12,125 nt of DNA from positions 1-12,125 of the IMG/VR virus record IMGVR_UViG_2534681700_000010; one strand, written 5' to 3'. Within the stretch, counting starts at the first letter, position 1; the number at the start of each line of letters is the position of its first letter. Positions 1,225-12,125 of the stretch are shown piece by piece. The notes under the pieces are model-generated. The model had not been told where the DNA came from and made no database searches. It saw only the letters and a list, made by a program, of their open reading frames with translations. The translations under genes and the position numbers were made by a program. The DNA comes from a virus. Its lineage: Duplodnaviria; Heunggongvirae; Uroviricota; Caudoviricetes.

Positions 1225-1416
1225 TTAATAATCCCTCTTTTCCCATGTTTTTCCATCGGGGTCTTTGCGCTTGTCACTACCTGGTAACTGCTGGTGGCGT
1301 TCCTGTTGCAGCACAACGGAAACAGGCGCTGAACACCTGTTAATTTTGCTTGCTGGTTGTTTGATTCCGGCAATGCTGCGGATCATCTCCAGCAAATCGG
1401 CTTCGGTGATGGTCAT
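1225..1416 (-). CDS. Hypothetical small protein (63 aa)
   Basis: ATG at 1416 preceded by AAGGTG with a 6-nt spacer. No family recognised. Lies between the TTGACAC repeat array and the Abi gene. Confidence 0.5.
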   Translation of the reverse strand: MTITEADLLEMIRSIAGIKQPASKINRCSAPVSVVLQQERHQQLPGSDKRKDPDGKTWEKRDY

Positions 1417-1446: not shown

Positions 1447-1712
1447 GGTTGACACTTTCCGGCTTAAGACCTTAACAAATCTTAACATCGCAGGTTGACA
1501 CACTTGACACTTTTTCGCGAAAAACCTTATCAAACCTTAGCATTTCTAAGCATGGCAACTTGACACTTTTCGCGATTTTTTCGGCTTTTTGACGTGGTAA
1601 ATCTGGCGAAAGGCCAGTAATGGCGGGGCTTACAGCGAGGTTGACACTTTTTTCGCGTTCAGAGTGTAAAGTGTCAACCTGGCAAGCTGCTCAACTTGAC
1701 ACTTTTTGATGT
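1447..1712. repeat. Array of TTGACAC-T(4-6)-CGCG-like repeats: five direct, one inverted, plus a degenerate half-copy
   Basis: Seen directly: TTGACAC at 1449, 1495 (half copy), 1504, 1560, 1641 and 1696 on the plus strand, and inverted GTGTCAA at 1671-1677. Four copies are followed by TTTT(T)(T)CGCG. Irregular spacing (46, 9, 56, 81, 55 bp). Interspersed AACCTTA / CTTAAC short repeats at 1468-1540. Sits immediately 3' of the HTH-protein gene (stop at 1712-1714). Confidence 0.6.
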
Positions 1713-2239
1713 CATTGATGGTCTGATTTTTCCCATTCAGCCAGGGCGTTTAGCCCGGCTTCACTCCATGATTCCAGTTCATCGGGATAATCACCTGCAA
1801 CATAGCAGAGTTCGCAACGCAGCATACGAATTGCCAGCCTGGCATTACCCCGCAAATTGTATTTTTCAAAGTAATGCTGCCCTTCATCATCCTCAAGGCA
1901 GATAGCACCATCATCAAGAAAGTGCACTTCCCAGCCTAATTCCCCGGCTGCATCCTGCACACGCTGCTGTATGTCATCGTCCGTTGCCGGCGCAGGAATT
2001 TTTCCGTCTCTGGCCTTAACTGCTTTCCAGAACTCGCCCCACGTCATTTCCAGCGTTCTTTCTGGCCACATTTCAGAAACTGTGTCTTTTCCCTGTGCTG
2101 CTGGGCTGTTCCGCTGTTCTGTCGCTTCCACATCGATTTTTTTACCGGACATGACCACTTCGCCTTTCTCGATCCAGTCGTAAACTGTCTGGCGGCTTAC
2201 GCCTTTGTGTTTGGCATATTCTGCCTTGCTCATCAGCAT
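1712..2239 (-). CDS. HTH DNA-binding protein (175 aa); possible packaging-redirection (Rpp / small-terminase-like) or regulatory protein
   Basis: N-terminus MSKAEYAKHKGVSRQTVYDWIEKGEV is a classic helix-turn-helix signature. GGTGAG SD-like sequence upstream of ATG 2239. Separated by 6 nt from the stop of the upstream ORF (operon). Functional assignment is inference. Confidence 0.7.
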   Translation of the reverse strand: MLMSKAEYAKHKGVSRQTVYDWIEKGEVVMSGKKIDVEATEQRNSPAAQGKDTVSEMWPERTLEMTWGEFWKAVKARDGKIPAPATDDDIQQRVQDAAGELGWEVHFLDDGAICLEDDEGQHYFEKYNLRGNARLAIRMLRCELCYVAGDYPDELESWSEAGLNALAEWEKSDHQ

Positions 2240-2981: not shown

Positions 2982-3566
2982 TCATGCCCCCGCGAGGCTT
3001 GCAACGTTAATTTTGACCAGGCGACGGGGAGGGATTTTGAAGGCGTTCAGCCAGACGTTCGGATCTCCCTGATATTCAGTAATACGACGACCGGCTTCAT
3101 CCATTCTTACGGTTTTACCCAAATGGCCCGGCGTGTTTTCCACGGCCCACTGAGCACTTTCCTGAGCAGCCTTGTAAATCTGATCTTCCAGCACCGCCAG
3201 CGTTGCAGAATCTGAAACGGAACGAATATCCACATCACTGAATTTTTTAGCCAGCTTCTGTGCGCCAATTAATGCACGTTTGCGGTAATCCATCGACTTT
3301 TCACCAGCAAACGGGGCCGGAGCGCGACGCCCCATATTGCTGTATGCGGAATCCGCTTTAGCCTGGGCTTCTGCCAGTGAGGATTCATCTTCGACTGACG
3401 CGACGATGTTTTGATTCGCGTTATCCTCGTCTGCTTTTGTGAAATCCTGTGCGGGGATCGCATTCAGAATTTCGATAATCTCCTGCGGAGTGCTGCCCTG
3501 CGACTCTGACAGAGCGTTAACCACCTCCATCAGTTTTAATCGCAAATCTTCTTTGCTTGCTGGCAT
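2982..3566 (-). CDS. Hypothetical acidic protein (194 aa from ATG 3566)
   Basis: ATG at 3566 preceded by AGGTGG with a 5-nt spacer; the track start at 3575 is GTG. Acidic, Ala/Glu-rich protein with no recognised domain. Confidence 0.7.
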   Translation of the reverse strand: MPASKEDLRLKLMEVVNALSESQGSTPQEIIEILNAIPAQDFTKADEDNANQNIVASVEDESSLAEAQAKADSAYSNMGRRAPAPFAGEKSMDYRKRALIGAQKLAKKFSDVDIRSVSDSATLAVLEDQIYKAAQESAQWAVENTPGHLGKTVRMDEAGRRITEYQGDPNVWLNAFKIPPRRLVKINVASLAGA

Positions 3567-3605
3567 TGTTACCACCTCTCTTTTTTCACCAAAAAATCAC
3601 GACCA

Positions 3606-3981: not shown

Positions 3982-4269
3982 TCACTGACTGCAATTTTTC
4001 GATCCAGGGTATTTCCTGAATGCCTTACCATTGGGCTGATGTAATCCCATCCCGGCATGTGCCCGGCTGATGGTTTCGCGCATCTCCCCGAAATTATCCT
4101 GCCTTGCTGGTGGGCGTGCTGCCTTGCGGATACATTCCGCGCGACGTTTTGCCGCCTGTTCCCGTGCCTTGTCATCATTCGCCAGCATGATGACCTCAGC
4201 CCACCGCGCCGCCGCTCTCCGGTACAGACCACGCGCTTCCAGTGCTTCCGCTTTGCTGTCGTGAATCAT
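3982..4269 (-). CDS. PerC/Pch-like small transcriptional regulator (95 aa), tentative family call
   Basis: ATG at 4269 overlaps the upstream stop (ATGA). The AEALEARGLYRRAAARWAEV motif resembles the E-x-x-G-L-W-R-R-A-A-x-R-W core I recall for PerC-family proteins. The family call is from memory only. Confidence 0.5.
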   Translation of the reverse strand: MIHDSKAEALEARGLYRRAAARWAEVIMLANDDKAREQAAKRRAECIRKAARPPARQDNFGEMRETISRAHAGMGLHQPNGKAFRKYPGSKNCSQ

Positions 4270-4808
4270 GCGCCTGTTTTCTCCTTTGCTGCCCGGCGCT
4301 GACGTTTGCGCTTCTCATTCAGCGCCACCAGCCGCGTTTCTGCGTCCTGTTGTTCCTGTGGTGTCACCTCGCCGCACGGCTGGCCTTTCAGGTCGTAACG
4401 TGCACCACCAGCCATTAAGGCGCGGTAATAGCGCGGAGACTGCGCATAAGATGCCAGCGTCGCACGTAATGCCCCTGGCCCGAATGCCAGCCCCCTGACG
4501 GCGAGATCCTGCATCAGGTCGTCGAATATCCCCACCTTAAGCGGCTTCGGTGCTTCCCGGCTGAATAATTCAGGCCACAACTCAGTGAGGCGGTTAACGC
4601 GCCTGCGGTTTTTGCGCTGGCGCTTGGTCATATGCCGCCACGGTGTCGCCCCTGTGGGCTTCTGCTGCGCTTTCTGGTTACCGGGCATCACTTTATGCGC
4701 CGACGTGGTTTTATCCTGCTCCTGTGCCGCCTGCGTCGTTTTCTGCGGCGTGCCATAAATGCCTTTCGGTTTTCTGTTAATGGTCAGCTTAGTCATGCTT
4801 TGCCCCAT
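4266..4808 (-). CDS. ProQ/FinO-domain protein (RNA-chaperone-like), 180 aa
   Basis: PLKVGIFDDL...LRATLASYAQSPRYYRALMAGGARYDLKGQPCGEV aligns by eye to the FinO-like domain of E. coli ProQ (PLKIGIFQDL...[35 protein letters not shown]). Basic, low-complexity N-terminus. Start ATG at 4808 or 4796; both have weak SDs. Confidence 0.7.
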   Translation of the reverse strand: MGQSMTKLTINRKPKGIYGTPQKTTQAAQEQDKTTSAHKVMPGNQKAQQKPTGATPWRHMTKRQRKNRRRVNRLTELWPELFSREAPKPLKVGIFDDLMQDLAVRGLAFGPGALRATLASYAQSPRYYRALMAGGARYDLKGQPCGEVTPQEQQDAETRLVALNEKRKRQRRAAKEKTGA

Positions 4809-4814
4809 CGTTAC

Positions 4815-5152
4815 AACTGTCTACCAACTGTCTACCGATATAATTGATTGATTTATTTAATGTTATTAACTCATAACAAAAAAACAATCTGCAAACTGTC
4901 TACTAACTGTCTACCGCATTAATACATTGATAATTAATGATTTTTTCAAAGTGGTAGACAGAGTAGACAGTTAAAAGAGAAATTTTAAAAATGAACCCTT
5001 AACTATCTGTTTTTATATACCCCCCGTGGTTTAGGAATATAGAAACAACTGTCTACTCTCTACCACATTTAAAAATATCTATATAATTCAATGACTTAGC
5101 CGGTAGATAGTTGGTAGAGGGTTAAGTATTACTGTCTACCAACCGTCTACCT
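4815..5152. repeat. Putative replication origin: AACTGTCTACC iterons in both orientations around AT-rich tracts
   Basis: Direct copies at 4815-4825, 4826-4836, 4894-4904, 4905-4915, 5047-5057, 5131-5140 and 5141-5152. Inverted copies (GGTAGACAG / AGTAGACAG) at 4953-4961 and 4962-4970. Degenerate copies at 5001-5010 and 5102-5119. Very AT-rich spacers. Lies immediately 3' of the primase/helicase gene (ends 5179). Confidence 0.7.
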
Positions 5153-5178
5153 TTACGTTTCAGCTTATAAATTTCGTA

Positions 5179-6984
5179 TTATGTTCTGTCGTTAATCCCT
5201 GTTGCTGCTGGCAACCAGCCATCAGCATCATCATCTAACAGAACATTTGTTATCACTCGCCCTTTATCTGGGCCTTTAGTGCATTTAGCCCGCTTATACT
5301 CCTTTCCGTATTCCGCCATAGCACCCGGCATATCAGTGCCAAAGCGTTTCAGTGATACTGGTTTTCCCAGGCCATGCGCTGACATATAGGCTAAATAAGC
5401 ATGATACAGATATCGTCTCGGGCTAAATGGCACTATTCCCGCATTGCCCACCATCATTCCTTCACATTTAACCAACGACATCAGATAGCCGCAAAAGTCC
5501 ACCAGTGAATCACCCTCGCGTTTTATCACCAGAGCCTCTTCTGATTTCTGCTGCTCATATAACAGACGTCTGGCTTCATCCTGGTCAGAAAAACGAGTAA
5601 GCAGGTGGCGAATCACTACCGCCAGTTCGCATTCTATCTTTTCCGCCAGCATGGGATCGCGTTCGTTCTCCGGTACGACCTCAGAGAAATTAAATATCAC
5701 CCTACGACGCGAGATCCCCCCGCTTCGGTCACTGAATGACATGGCGTTATTGTTTACCGCAAGCACTACTGCCGGAATACGTGTGGAGTAGGGGGCTTTA
5801 TGTTTCGGGTCAATTGCCACCTTGTCGCCGCCAGTAATTGCCTTAATTCCTGCACCATCGCCAGCGTAGCGAGTCATATCCGGCATGATAATCAGCGAAA
5901 AGCCAACTACTAACGCGCGTTCCCTTGCGTCTTCCAGCGCCTTCATGCTTGCCGATACTGTGTTGGCCTTACCCGCCAGCATGGTACAAATCTCAGCCAT
6001 CACACTTTTACCGCTTCCGCCTGGGCCTGTTACCTCAAGGAATAACTGCCAGTCGTACCGGTTCGCCAGTACCATGAATAATGCCGCCAGTACGCGATCA
6101 GCTTTACGATCATTATCTGCCACCGAACGACGCAGCCACTTCCAGAAATTCGGCGCATGTGTTGCCAGCGTTTCCCCCTCTGCTGGCGGGCTGAACGGTA
6201 ATTCACTGGCATTTAACAACCAGTCATTTTTGTTATGCTCCCGAAAATTTCCCGTCCGGGTATCAAATACCCCGTTACTGAATCCAATAAGATTCCTGTC
6301 TGCCCCGCCCATAACAGGCAGGCTCAATTTCATTGTGTCTACGGCAAATTTAATGGCGTTTTGCGAATAACTGATTCCAGCATCAATAAAAATCTTCGCC
6401 ATAGACCGCTGGAGTTCCTTATCAGATACAGGCACCCAGACAATTCCGTTGTAATGGTGAACTACATCAGAATCATCATTTATAGCCAGTGCTCTTCCAT
6501 AATATTCAAGTAACACTTCCCCTCTCTGGCTGGCTCCCATCTGATTTAGTGCTGGCCTGGGTAGGTCAATATTTTTTGTGGTTAATTTCATCGCTGAAAC
6601 TTCCCCACTCTCTGCCTGTTCGCGGATCCGTTGCAGGTAATCGCGCCAGTTCTCCGGCTCCCGGTCGGTGATACCTTTGTATAATTTCGCCTCCTGTACG
6701 CCAGCCAGCGCCAGTTTTTCAGCGATAGCGTTGATCTGGATTGGCTCTATCTCCCCCGCAAGATAGACACGTGCAAAGCGGCGTTTCTCGTCAATAATGC
6801 GGATATTCACCAGGTCTGCCAGTTGCTTCGGCCCCAGGTAAACAGGTGGCACGTTATCGCCGTGTTTTCGTCCTTCGCTTTCAATCCAGTGTTGAGCATG
6901 GGCGTAAGCATCCGTCCCGGCAAAAATGATTACCTCGGTGAATTTATCCTTCGGCTGATATTTTAAATTCGGTGCGTTTTTCAC
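5179..6984 (-). CDS. Primase/helicase replication protein (P4-alpha / D5-like, SF3 helicase P-loop), 601 aa
   Basis: Walker A GPGGSGKS present, with a typical phage/plasmid primase C-terminal architecture. GTG start at 6984 overlaps the upstream stop (GTGA) and is preceded by GGGAGGT with a 5-nt spacer. The N-terminal region has no obvious toprim motif by eye. Confidence 0.9.
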   Translation of the reverse strand: MKNAPNLKYQPKDKFTEVIIFAGTDAYAHAQHWIESEGRKHGDNVPPVYLGPKQLADLVNIRIIDEKRRFARVYLAGEIEPIQINAIAEKLALAGVQEAKLYKGITDREPENWRDYLQRIREQAESGEVSAMKLTTKNIDLPRPALNQMGASQRGEVLLEYYGRALAINDDSDVVHHYNGIVWVPVSDKELQRSMAKIFIDAGISYSQNAIKFAVDTMKLSLPVMGGADRNLIGFSNGVFDTRTGNFREHNKNDWLLNASELPFSPPAEGETLATHAPNFWKWLRRSVADNDRKADRVLAALFMVLANRYDWQLFLEVTGPGGSGKSVMAEICTMLAGKANTVSASMKALEDARERALVVGFSLIIMPDMTRYAGDGAGIKAITGGDKVAIDPKHKAPYSTRIPAVVLAVNNNAMSFSDRSGGISRRRVIFNFSEVVPENERDPMLAEKIECELAVVIRHLLTRFSDQDEARRLLYEQQKSEEALVIKREGDSLVDFCGYLMSLVKCEGMMVGNAGIVPFSPRRYLYHAYLAYMSAHGLGKPVSLKRFGTDMPGAMAEYGKEYKRAKCTKGPDKGRVITNVLLDDDADGWLPAATGINDRT

Positions 6985-10782: not shown

Positions 10783-10910
10783 TCTGTGCTACCTCGCACC
10801 CTCTGTAAAAGTGGCTGTGCCAGCCCGCAGAGGTGTACGGGTTTTCAGGAGCGACCCTAGACACAGCCTTTTCTTAATCGCTCAAAGTCTACTACTGTAT
10901 ACTCAACCAG

Positions 10911-12125
10911 TCACCCGCATTTTCCGAACTCACCATGCACCACATTTCCGCCATGCTCGAGCGAATCCATATAGTCGGCATACCACTGGAGCATCTCCCG
11001 GCGACCATCCAGATATTGCGCATGGTTGTATGTGCCACGAATTGAGTTTTTATCGACGTGTGCGAGCTGCGTCTCTATCCACGCGGTGTTATAGCCCTGC
11101 TCATGCAAAATGGTGCTCATGGTGTGCCGGAATCCATGACCAGTAACGCGCCCGGCATAGCCGATACGACGAATGAGCACATTCATCGCCATTTCACTCA
11201 TTGGCTTACTGTGGTGAATACGACCGGGGAAAATAAACTGATACTGGCCTGTCATGTTTTTTAACTGCTCCAGTATTTTTATCGCCTGTTCTGGTAATGG
11301 CACACAATGCGGACGGCGCATCTTCATTCGTTCTTTAGGCACTTCCCACAAACGATTATCAAAATCGATCTCCTGCCATTCTGCCTGCCGTAATTCCCCG
11401 GGTCTGACACCTGTCAGAATTAATAGCCGCATTGCCAGTTTGACGATCTGGCTTCCGGTGTACGTATTAAAAACGCGGAAAAATTCCGGCAGTTCGTCGG
11501 CCTTCAAATAGGCGTAATGCTCTTTTTTATGTGGAGCAAATGCGCTCACCAGGTCAGGGGCTGGATTATATTCGGCGCGTCCGGTGATGATTGCGTACCG
11601 GAACACCTCGCCGCATCGCTGGCGAACCTTACGCAATTTTTCAGTCGCACCACGGTCATTAAGACGGGAAAGAACCGCCAGCAATTCCATCGGCTTAATT
11701 TCTGCGATCGGCCTACCGCCAATGTACGGAAAAACATCTTTTTCAAACGTCTCGATCATTTCCTCGGCGTATGACGATGACCACCTGTCGATCCGCTTTT
11801 CGTACCATTCGCGAGCAATACCCTCAAAAGTATTGCCAAATTTGCTCGCCTGTTCTCGCTTTTGGGCTTTTCTGGCCTCACTTGGATTTATACCACCAGC
11901 AAGAAGCCTTTTAGCCTCATCCCTTGCCGCCCTGGCATCAGACAGAGACACATCAGGGTACACACCCAACGACAACATTTTGGGCTTTCCTGCAAACCTG
12001 TAGCGCAGTCGCCACCCTTTCGAACCGTTCGGCTCAATGAGCAACGAAAGCCCGTTACCGTCATTGAGTGTATAAGCCTTTTCTTTCGGCTTCGCGCGCC
12101 TGATGGCAAGGTCTGAAAGCAGCAT
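10911..12125 (-). CDS. int: Tyrosine site-specific integrase, P4/IntA family
   Basis: Close by-eye match to E. coli IntA-type integrases: N-terminal LSDLAIRRAKPKEKAY...DGNGLSLLI arm-binding region and C-terminal HGFRHT...RGTYNHAQY catalytic region. The ATG falls on the last three bases of the window, so the true start may be slightly upstream and outside it. Confidence 0.95.
   Translation of the reverse strand: MLLSDLAIRRAKPKEKAYTLNDGNGLSLLIEPNGSKGWRLRYRFAGKPKMLSLGVYPDVSLSDARAARDEAKRLLAGGINPSEARKAQKREQASKFGNTFEGIAREWYEKRIDRWSSSYAEEMIETFEKDVFPYIGGRPIAEIKPMELLAVLSRLNDRGATEKLRKVRQRCGEVFRYAIITGRAEYNPAPDLVSAFAPHKKEHYAYLKADELPEFFRVFNTYTGSQIVKLAMRLLILTGVRPGELRQAEWQEIDFDNRLWEVPKERMKMRRPHCVPLPEQAIKILEQLKNMTGQYQFIFPGRIHHSKPMSEMAMNVLIRRIGYAGRVTGHGFRHTMSTILHEQGYNTAWIETQLAHVDKNSIRGTYNHAQYLDGRREMLQWYADYMDSLEHGGNVVHGEFGKCG

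Follow-up and report, generated by a model that had tools for sequence, protein, structure and literature searches.

In bacteriophage lambda, the R sites for gpNu1 are arranged in cosB as R3-I1-R2-R1 beside cosN, where I1 is a site for the integration host factor (IHF) located between R3 and R2. In the pac site of bacteriophage P1, two clusters of short repeats, which are Dam sites (TGATCA/G), flank a central region. Among phage satellites, the Staphylococcus aureus pathogenicity islands (SaPIs) carry accessory genes downstream of the packaging site (PMC12829572), and EcCICFT073 has been described as combining a cosN like that of the helper with a cosB of its own (PMC6739421). The present analysis concerns a repeat array located at positions 1417–1712 of a 12,125-nt stretch of viral DNA (IMG/VR record IMGVR_UViG_2534681700_000010; hereafter, the window), which is a phage-satellite island of the phage-inducible chromosomal island (PICI) type. 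The array lies between the stop codon of the gene for a 175-aa helix-turn-helix (HTH) protein, HTH175 (1712–2239, minus strand), the presumed reader of the repeats, and the ATG of a 63-aa open reading frame (ORF), p63 (1225–1416, minus strand), the first gene past the array. It is a composite of short repeats in both orientations (A sites), three copies of a second motif (B motif) and one 22-bp central element. On balance, it is somewhat probable, judging from sequence comparison, that the array is a cosB/pac-like packaging-recognition site for a terminase-derived specificity factor. Such a module would be analogous to Rpp/cos1 of EcCICFT073 or to TerS/pac of the SaPIs, while being a member of neither family.

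The array resembles the cosB of lambda and Gifsy phages in having 7–9 short asymmetric repeats in both orientations over 150–300 bp beside a gene for a Nu1-family winged-helix protein. As in lambda, a non-repeated element stands between the repeat groups, at the place of I1, and the repeat motif tracks the recognition helix. It differs from lambda cosB in that arrays of this class have no adjacent cosN and lie 3′ of the gene, the reader is devoid of the C-terminal half of a terminase, the B motif is interleaved in the array, and the central element is of replication-origin type and does not follow the IHF consensus. Unlike P1 pac, the array contains no GATC, and the similarity to P1-like elements is confined to the plasmid origin and does not include pac. 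Similar to the SaPIs, the satellite would provide its own DNA-recognition subunit and its own site; however, the small terminase subunit (TerS) of SaPIs is complete and pairs with the large subunit (TerL) of the phage, whereas HTH175 consists of the DNA-binding domain only as far as terminase parts are concerned. In EcCICFT073, cos1 occupies the same place as the array, i.e., the end of the late operon; a repeat structure is not mentioned in the consulted passages of the report on that island (PMC6739421). EcCICFT073 keeps a lambda-like cosQ and cosN; the present island has neither, and the arrangement of helper-like cosQ and cosN beside a private cosB is absent from it. HTH175 shares the TerS-like winged-helix DNA-binding fold with the Rpp system, but it has no sequence homology to RppA, RppB, or RppC, which have 144–153 aa as against the 175 aa of HTH175, and its C-terminal domain differs from theirs. 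EcCICFT073 itself was sought in the CFT073 chromosome at guessed coordinates, which yielded only a lambdoid prophage, and this was used as a cos reference.

The heptamer TTGACAC occurs in seven exact copies in the window, all within 1449–1702, while 1.56 copies are expected window-wide, and a count of seven was reached by 1 of 200 shuffles of the window. Six copies are on the plus strand and one is on the minus strand (1671–1677). The cluster of six to seven copies noted in the initial annotation, and its position between the two genes, are borne out by this count. Of the motif proposed there, TTGACAC-Tn-CGCG, the core stands; the CGCG tail does not, as it is present in three copies, is replaced by CCGG in a fourth, and is not conserved outside Escherichia coli. 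The repeats had been called unrelated to the origin iterons, which holds for the motif, since the island origin uses GGTAGACAGTT, but not for the central element, which is itself of origin type. The array had also been described as repeats alone, the B motif and the 22-bp element having been missed.

Read on the coding (minus) strand, the A site is AAAGTGTCAA followed by C/G and then by C/T. Six exact 10-mers and three degenerate copies make up nine sites in ∼290 bp directly after the HTH175 gene, and a repeat search recovered the same family plus a degenerate copy at 1417–1428. Site S1 (1696–1705, minus; AAAGTGTCAA gt) lies 7 nt past the HTH175 stop codon, a position kept in Rouxiella, Raoultella, Buttiauxella, Pantoea, and Klebsiella-type loci. 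S2 (1668–1677, plus; AAAGTGTCAA cc on the plus strand), the sole inverted exact copy, makes an inverted pair with S1 and also with S3 (1641–1650, minus; AAAGTGTCAA cc), and an inverted second site is kept across genera; a degenerate A site is found at 1661–1670 (plus). S3 is placed 5 nt before the non-repeated central element (OCE; 1614–1635, minus; CTGTAAGCCCCGCCATTACTGG). The right arm opens with S4 (1560–1569, minus; AAAGTGTCAA gt), and B1 (1535–1550, minus; CTTAGAAATGCTAAGG), with an extra TAAGG at 1525–1529, is located 9 nt past it and is kept as ATGCTTAGAAATGCYAGG in Raoultella, Pantoea, Erwinia, Serratia, Citrobacter, and Scandinavium. The exact site S5 (1504–1513, minus) overlaps the degenerate S6 (1495–1504, minus; AGTGTGTCAA cc), with B2 (1470–1485, minus; TTAAGATTTGTTAAGG) 9 nt past S6. 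S7 (1449–1458, minus; AAAGTGTCAA cc) precedes by 8 nt the last copy, B3 (1425–1440, minus; CTAAGATTTCCTAAGG), which overlaps both a degenerate A site (1419–1428, minus) and the Shine-Dalgarno sequence of the 63-aa ORF. The B motif has the consensus YTWAG-N5-YTAAGG with half-sites 10 bp apart, and each copy lies 8–9 nt after an A site. A match to the IHF consensus with one mismatch at 1528–1540 abuts B1, sharing only 1535–1540 with it and mainly covering the extra TAAGG; 18 such matches occur window-wide, and the match is not significant. An Rfam search of the array gave no match, and the inverted repeats account for its RNA fold z-score of −2.85. The ends of IMG/VR contigs showed no coincidence with the array.

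The module was found in ∼3% of complete E. coli genomes (166/5,426), with up to four copies per genome, and in many genomes of Klebsiella, Serratia, Pantoea, Enterobacter, and Yersinia. In most of the 166 E. coli genomes, identity over the intergenic region amounts to 90% or more, and among its 32 distinct versions in this species the A sites are invariant and the S1–S2 spacer is variable. The layout next to HTH175 homologues is kept in at least 10 enterobacterial genera, arrays having been found downstream of these genes in E. coli, E. ruysiae, Rouxiella, Raoultella, Buttiauxella, Pantoea, Serratia, Erwinia, Citrobacter, and Scandinavium. The order after the HTH175 stop codon is also conserved, namely, a near-stop site, an inverted site, the central element, and units of an A site plus a B motif. 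The spacers, in contrast to these repeat units, are unrelated in sequence between genera. In 17 diverse arrays, 67 exact cores were counted in 4.3 kb as against 0.5 expected, and the AAA flank of the A site is present at 94–97% (66 unique sites), i.e., it is an invariant flank. The extended conserved A site is AAAGTGTCAASY, and variants such as GTGTAAA are retained. At B3, CCCCCTAAGATTTCCTAA is common to E. coli and Raoultella, and the loci diverge past this motif. The sequence shared between islands ends at the last B motif with variable cargo beyond, and the array forms both the end of the late operon and the boundary to variable defence cargo.

HTH175 is composed of a winged helix (residues 1–44), a disordered linker (45–56), and a new alpha/beta C-terminal domain. 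Residues 1–42 match phrog_57 (small terminase) in PHROGs with an E-value of 1.2e-7, and by this sequence relationship the N-terminal winged helix is a member of the Nu1/DUF1441 small-terminase family. Its recognition helix reads GVSRQTVYDW. Homologues are confined to Enterobacterales and show almost no variation over the first 42 residues. Pfam gave HTH_17 only, below threshold, and fold searches against the PDB and viral models matched a generic winged helix only. Sequence searches of the PDB with HTH175 and with its family profile returned no TerS, PADLOC and NCBIfam gave nothing for the protein, and no match was obtained for it by BLAST against 50,697 phage records.

When viral contigs were scanned for inverted pairs of A sites, 66 loci were obtained, mostly on satellite-sized contigs of 10–20 kb with an HTH175 homologue beside the array. 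The array and an HTH gene co-occur in three arrangements, i.e., with the array downstream of HTH175, upstream of HTH194, or upstream of a split version of the terminase (locus L133). The second family, HTH194, is represented by seven loci and is 46–54% identical in the HTH, with the array upstream of the gene and two paralogous genes alongside. In a further satellite, L058 (2363–2923), a 186-aa full-length small terminase is encoded directly behind an A-site array; it matches phrog_57 over residues 1–180 (E 2.7e-23) and has the recognition helix GVTRQTIYDW. Its homologues in Salmonella and E. coli (47–57% identity) are genuine phage terS, with genes for a GpA-type TerL, gpW, a lambda-type portal, and an S49 protease downstream. 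The helix of the phage TerS proteins reads GV(D/H/N)RKTI(A/S/T)RW, whereas that of the satellite proteins reads (S/T)RQ(T/A)(V/I/L)Y(D/S)W. The phage terS genes are preceded by 7–8 TGTCCCA/TGGGACA repeats of both orientations, which are clustered in ∼150 bp and do not recur in the rest of the 8.6 kb. The corresponding repeat motifs are AAAGTGTCAA for L058-type and ATGTCCCA for L242-type terminases. Repeat motif and recognition helix thus change together in one terminase family, which is the signature expected of cosB-type recognition sites.

A phage-like cosN region, GGGTCCTTCCTGA..CACGGGCATTGCGCG..GGTGTTTCAC, precedes the phage arrays as well as the A-site arrays of the HTH194, L058, and L133 satellites. 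This Gifsy-type region was found in L133, L058, L061, L078, and L090, and that of L133 is 92% identical to that of phage L242 over 61 bp. In pairing a phage-like cosN with a private A-site array, these satellites resemble EcCICFT073 (PMC6739421). L133 (9043–9982) encodes a split and permuted terminase consisting of a 136-aa C-terminal-type protein, which matches the C-terminal half of the terminase family, a 62-aa HTH protein that is 56% identical to the HTH175 N-terminus, and a 107-aa paralogue of the 136-aa protein. Preceding these parts are the cosN-like region and A sites of the GTGTAAA type around a central element. As separate observations, the phage repeats upstream of DUF1441-family terS in lambda/Gifsy-like prophages of Salmonella and E. 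coli (L240, 3843–3995; L242, 3815–3959) look like an undescribed cosB, and the label “RNA polymerase subunit sigma-70,” under which many of the database entries for these terS genes are found, appears to be a misannotation. Also, in the 42-kb contig L053 (7700–11300), p275, p173, an A-site array, and HTH194 are situated between the tail-fibre assembly (chaperone) and tail-sheath genes, a position that we take to be a defence hotspot in P2-like phages. In L061 (7300–14800), the HTH194 module is ∼5 kb from sheath genes. The module of L053 and L061 may belong either to a satellite in or beside a myovirus-type prophage or to a moron at a tail-region hotspot.

The equivalence of the genomic slot was examined in 43 loci anchored on PerC. 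A homologue of HTH175 is present in 39 of them, one ends before the slot, and three are without HTH175; of the 39, the array is inside the locus in 37 and is cut off by the locus end in two. The three loci without HTH175 (L133, L134, and L135) carry terminase-related modules in the same slot, before the p63 homologue. L133 carries the split terminase described above. In the other two, the slot is occupied by a lambda-like cos (9041–9260 in L134 and 8388–8603 in L135) together with the gene for a Phage_Nu1 TerS (Pfam E 1.3e-69). A second, inverted partial cos is found just past terS in L134 (9991–10061); this double cos recalls the two cos sites reported for EcCICFT073. The p63 ORF is found in most HTH175 loci, and a homologue also follows the cos–terS module of syntenic islands. 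The p63 protein is 42% identical to a 104-aa protein of L134 (BLASTP E 2e-10), which in turn matches phrog_1561 (E 7.5e-49).

The packaging reading is the best supported because the array is always accompanied by this HTH domain, the HTH is of the terminase type, the same sites adjoin TerS in sister satellites, helix and repeat covary, and the slot is equivalent to that of terminase modules; the capsid-morphogenesis-related genes nearby (the DUF2213 protein) also count in its favor. Under this reading, HTH175 would have kept the Nu1/DUF1441 winged helix with an altered recognition helix, a new domain having replaced the C-terminal half of the terminase. Several HTH175 molecules would bind the approximately nine AAAGTGTCAA sites flanking the central element, building a nucleoprotein complex as lambda gpNu1 does on the cosB R sites. 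The C-terminal domain would then recruit the helper terminase to satellite instead of phage DNA, and packaging would proceed towards the accessory genes. We infer the binding by HTH175, the recruitment of the terminase, and the direction and place of cutting from these comparisons. The central element and the B motifs are perhaps architectural, by analogy with the IHF site I1 of lambda cosB.

Several findings weigh against a packaging function. No lambda cosN was found in the window at up to two mismatches, and the matches with three mismatches are at chance level and outside the array; similarly, no P2/P4 cos beyond chance was found in the window, and a Gifsy-type cosN region is missing from it as well as from all HTH175-class loci. 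Both the A sites and the central element are absent from Rac-SA53, the candidate helper. HTH175 is without the C-terminal half of a terminase, which serves oligomerisation and TerL binding, and carries an unrelated C-terminal domain, for which the PDB and viral models offered no informative structural match. HTH175 also gave no match to Rpp at E-values up to 1, either with phmmer or with the family profile against the PDB including RppC (6hn7). The array is 3′ of the gene here but 5′ in the classes with the clearest terminase link. Moreover, the central element is a hallmark of replication origins, which the packaging model does not predict. Since no cosN was found in the HTH175 class, packaging may start in a pac-like (headful) manner with the aid of, for example, a Rac-type helper. 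Phages of the candidate helper type encode a Terminase_2 TerS and a Terminase_6N TerL. These two usually accompany headful packaging, which would make a pac-like mechanism with no fixed point of cutting plausible. The suggestion in the initial annotation of a packaging site bound by the adjacent HTH protein thus has the best support on comparative grounds, even though its class of arrays shows no cosN-like site.

Of all parts of the array, the central element is conserved best between genera, with 0–4 mismatches in essentially all HTH175-class arrays. BLAST of the array against the 50,697 phage records gave as its only DNA match 28 bp of a P1-like oriR, in which 26 of 28 bases agree at the central element; among plasmids this 28-bp match was again the main one, and five Borrelia records weakly matched another part of the array (E about 0.9). 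In P1-like phage-plasmid origins, the element is placed between RepFIB-type iterons and GATC repeats plus a DnaA box. Sister islands (L038, L039, L087, L089, L015, and L046) also carry it, in ori/crr-like regions with iterons past the primase gene. Its consensus reads CTGNAAGCNNCG(C/T)C(A/G)TTACTGG, with examples at 1614–1635 of the window, in L139–L239, and at 2504–2525 of L092. A pattern scan of viral contigs with CTRNAAGCNNCGYCRTTACTGG gave at least 119 loci, of which 101 new ones were classified. Among the matches listed, in 53 of the 101 the element, flanked by 5+5 CATGTGCGG repeats, lies within a Phage_rep_O gene that precedes a gene for a DnaB-like helicase; in 22 it lies ∼200 bp after D5-type primase genes, in six beside P1-like RepA, and in one beside a Prim-Pol/PriCT_2 gene. 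The remaining loci among these matches show other or unassigned contexts, such as L201 (GC-rich host), where it lies just past a 687-aa primase-like gene identified from sequence only. Taken together, in more than 80 origins among the matches listed the element lies between initiator repeats of unrelated sequence. The element did not fit the consensus of IHF, DnaA, LexA, TyrR, Xer, Fis, sigma-54, or Ogr/Delta (by eye, and for IHF and DnaA also by search), text searches of the literature for the motifs gave nothing relevant, and no description of the element was found in the searchable literature. Weak copies occur 55–150 bp from the cos sites of P4, L134, and L135. The P4 copy (four mismatches, 54 bp from cosN) has no counterpart in P2 and a weak one in 186, and it is retained as a weak hint only.

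The element raises the question of whether the island has in the array another replication origin or a region like the crr of P4, with A sites as iterons, HTH175 as a small origin-binding adaptor, and the element as the shared origin core on which replication proteins of the host or helper would act. The layout of sites, element, and sites copies that of origins with unrelated initiators, of which the element is the hallmark. As in the iteron origins of O-type lambdoid phages, D5-primase PICIs, and P1-like RepA plasmids, repeats flank the same 22-bp core at comparable distances, the nearest being 3–6 nt from its 5′ end, and the array adjoins the gene of the binding protein, lying just past it as in D5-type origins. 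In contrast to such origins, however, the array has no AT-rich unwinding stretch (44% GC as against 29% in the true origin of the island) and no DnaA box (at up to one mismatch) or GATC, no helicase, primase, or known initiator domain was found in HTH175, and the repeats are of terminase type. The island already has a complete primase and origin (4809–5178), which is without the element, unlike the related D5-type origins L140, L046, and L089. Also, the HTH is of terminase type, the same sites follow phage cosN and precede terminase genes in sister satellites, the element of L133 is inside the cos region, and HTH194-class arrays have A sites without the element. An origin function for the array is considered doubtful on this evidence. 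Combining both functions, the central element could be a hitherto unrecognized core common to nearly all replication origins of phages, plasmids, and satellites, used by at least four unrelated initiator families and hence presumably read by a replisome or architectural factor of the host. The satellite packaging site would have been built around it, with HTH175, a terminase DNA-binding domain joined to a new adaptor domain, on this origin-like scaffold coupling the start of replication or access to the replisome to packaging; we regard this as unlikely. The origin-type central element is the part left unexplained by any model so far.

The array might alternatively serve as an operator, HTH175 being a Cox/Xis/BldC-like factor that would coat the array and thereby repress or activate its own operon or the 63-aa ORF and the defence cargo. 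In structure, the winged helix comes nearest to Xis, BldC, Cox, and AlpA-type proteins, whose binding sites form arrays; weak matches to Cox-like and excisionase families were obtained, “repressor” is among the database names, and arrays of the HTH194 class precede the gene, where sites for autoregulation are usually located. However, the promoter and terminator scan of the array gave nothing, with no sigma-70-like promoter in 1400–1720 on either strand, and the A-site spacings (9, 46, 56, 81, 27, and 28 bp) are irregular with mixed orientation (one inversion), unlike the head-to-tail filaments of Cox or BldC at about one helical turn. Approximately 290 bp with three kinds of conserved elements far exceeds the needs of an operator, and the terminase affiliation and slot equivalence favor packaging. 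An operator array, which had been raised in the initial annotation, is therefore quite unlikely. The bank of −35-like elements proposed along with it, in which TTGACA elements would fire on the plus strand, draws on six plus-strand copies of the hexamer; but no copy has a usable −10 hexamer at 16–18 bp, the scan found no plus-strand promoter, and transcription would run antisense into the HTH gene. The conserved site AAAGTGTCAASY extends past the hexamer, and the GTGTAAA variants are retained although they break the −35 consensus. This proposal is given up as extremely improbable. A further alternative is interference only, in which HTH175, as a mimic of the terminase DNA-binding domain, and the array would block helper packaging or titrate a helper protein with no role in packaging the satellite. 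Rpp proteins both block and redirect helper packaging (PMC6739421). The module also adjoins defence cargo, encoding AbiD here and an AAA ATPase and a DUF4435 protein in E. coli O104:H4, and the related HTH194 module of L053 is found between tail genes. But a cis array conserved in at least 10 genera is not needed for interference between proteins alone, and PADLOC gave no match. Satellites still need a packaging signal, for which the lambda, P2/P4, and Gifsy-type searches found no other candidate in the window. Interference as the sole function is thus very unlikely.

If the array is indeed a packaging signal, it would show how these islands, which move anti-phage defence genes (AbiD here, the AAA ATPase and DUF4435 pair elsewhere), are mobilised, and it would represent a third independent way, after SaPI TerS and Rpp, of diverting a helper terminase. 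A 290-bp fragment together with one small protein would then be usable for testing or engineering transducible DNA. The phage and satellite pairs form a natural specificity-swap series, in which one terminase family differs in recognition helix and repeat. Unless it has been described before, the 22-bp element, occurring as it does with unrelated initiators, hints at a step shared by their ways of initiating replication that is yet to be identified.

The genes of the island from the integrase to the Abi gene are all on the minus strand, in the order integrase, int-alpA RNA, D5-type primase with its own origin, ProQ, PerC, capsid-protease-like genes, HTH175, array, and defence cargo. The tyrosine integrase gene (10911–12125) is separated from the next gene by an int-alpA RNA (10799–10867, minus; Rfam RF02996, 49.8 bits, E 5e-8). 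The D5-type primase-helicase gene (5179–6984, minus) is followed by the AT-rich origin (4809–5178; 29% GC), which has at least seven iterons of the GGTAGACAGTT type in both orientations. Then come ProQ/FinO (4266–4808, minus), PerC (3982–4269, minus), a 197-aa protein (2982–3575, minus), and a 223-aa DUF2213 protein (2246–2917, minus), with HTH175 next. Beyond the array and p63 (phrog_1561-related) lies an AbiD-type abortive-infection gene (1–996, minus). No match of the window to phage records was found at the DNA level. In the closest complete genome, a tRNA-Gly gene adjoins the integrase and further defence genes are present at the opposite end.

The promoter scan found a single sigma-70-like promoter in 1000–2400, at 1110–1083 on the minus strand (TTGACA-16-TAGATT), just before the AbiD-type gene. 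With its own upstream promoter, the defence cargo may be expressed independently of the late operon of the satellite. In E. coli O104:H4 2011C-3493 (L002, 3703–5659), the cargo past the array consists of the AAA ATPase and the DUF4435 protein, a putatively PARIS-like pair, and this cargo shows that a hotspot of defence genes begins at the array. Of the capsid-protease-like genes, the DUF2213 protein corresponds to the N-terminal part and the 197-aa protein to the C-terminal part of phrog_6216 (545 positions), and a 430-aa protein of phage Rac-SA53, encoded at the protease/scaffold position, is 54% identical to the DUF2213 protein. From its sequence, this pair resembles a head-assembly protein of a helper that the satellite carries in split form, and it may serve to hijack capsid size or assembly.

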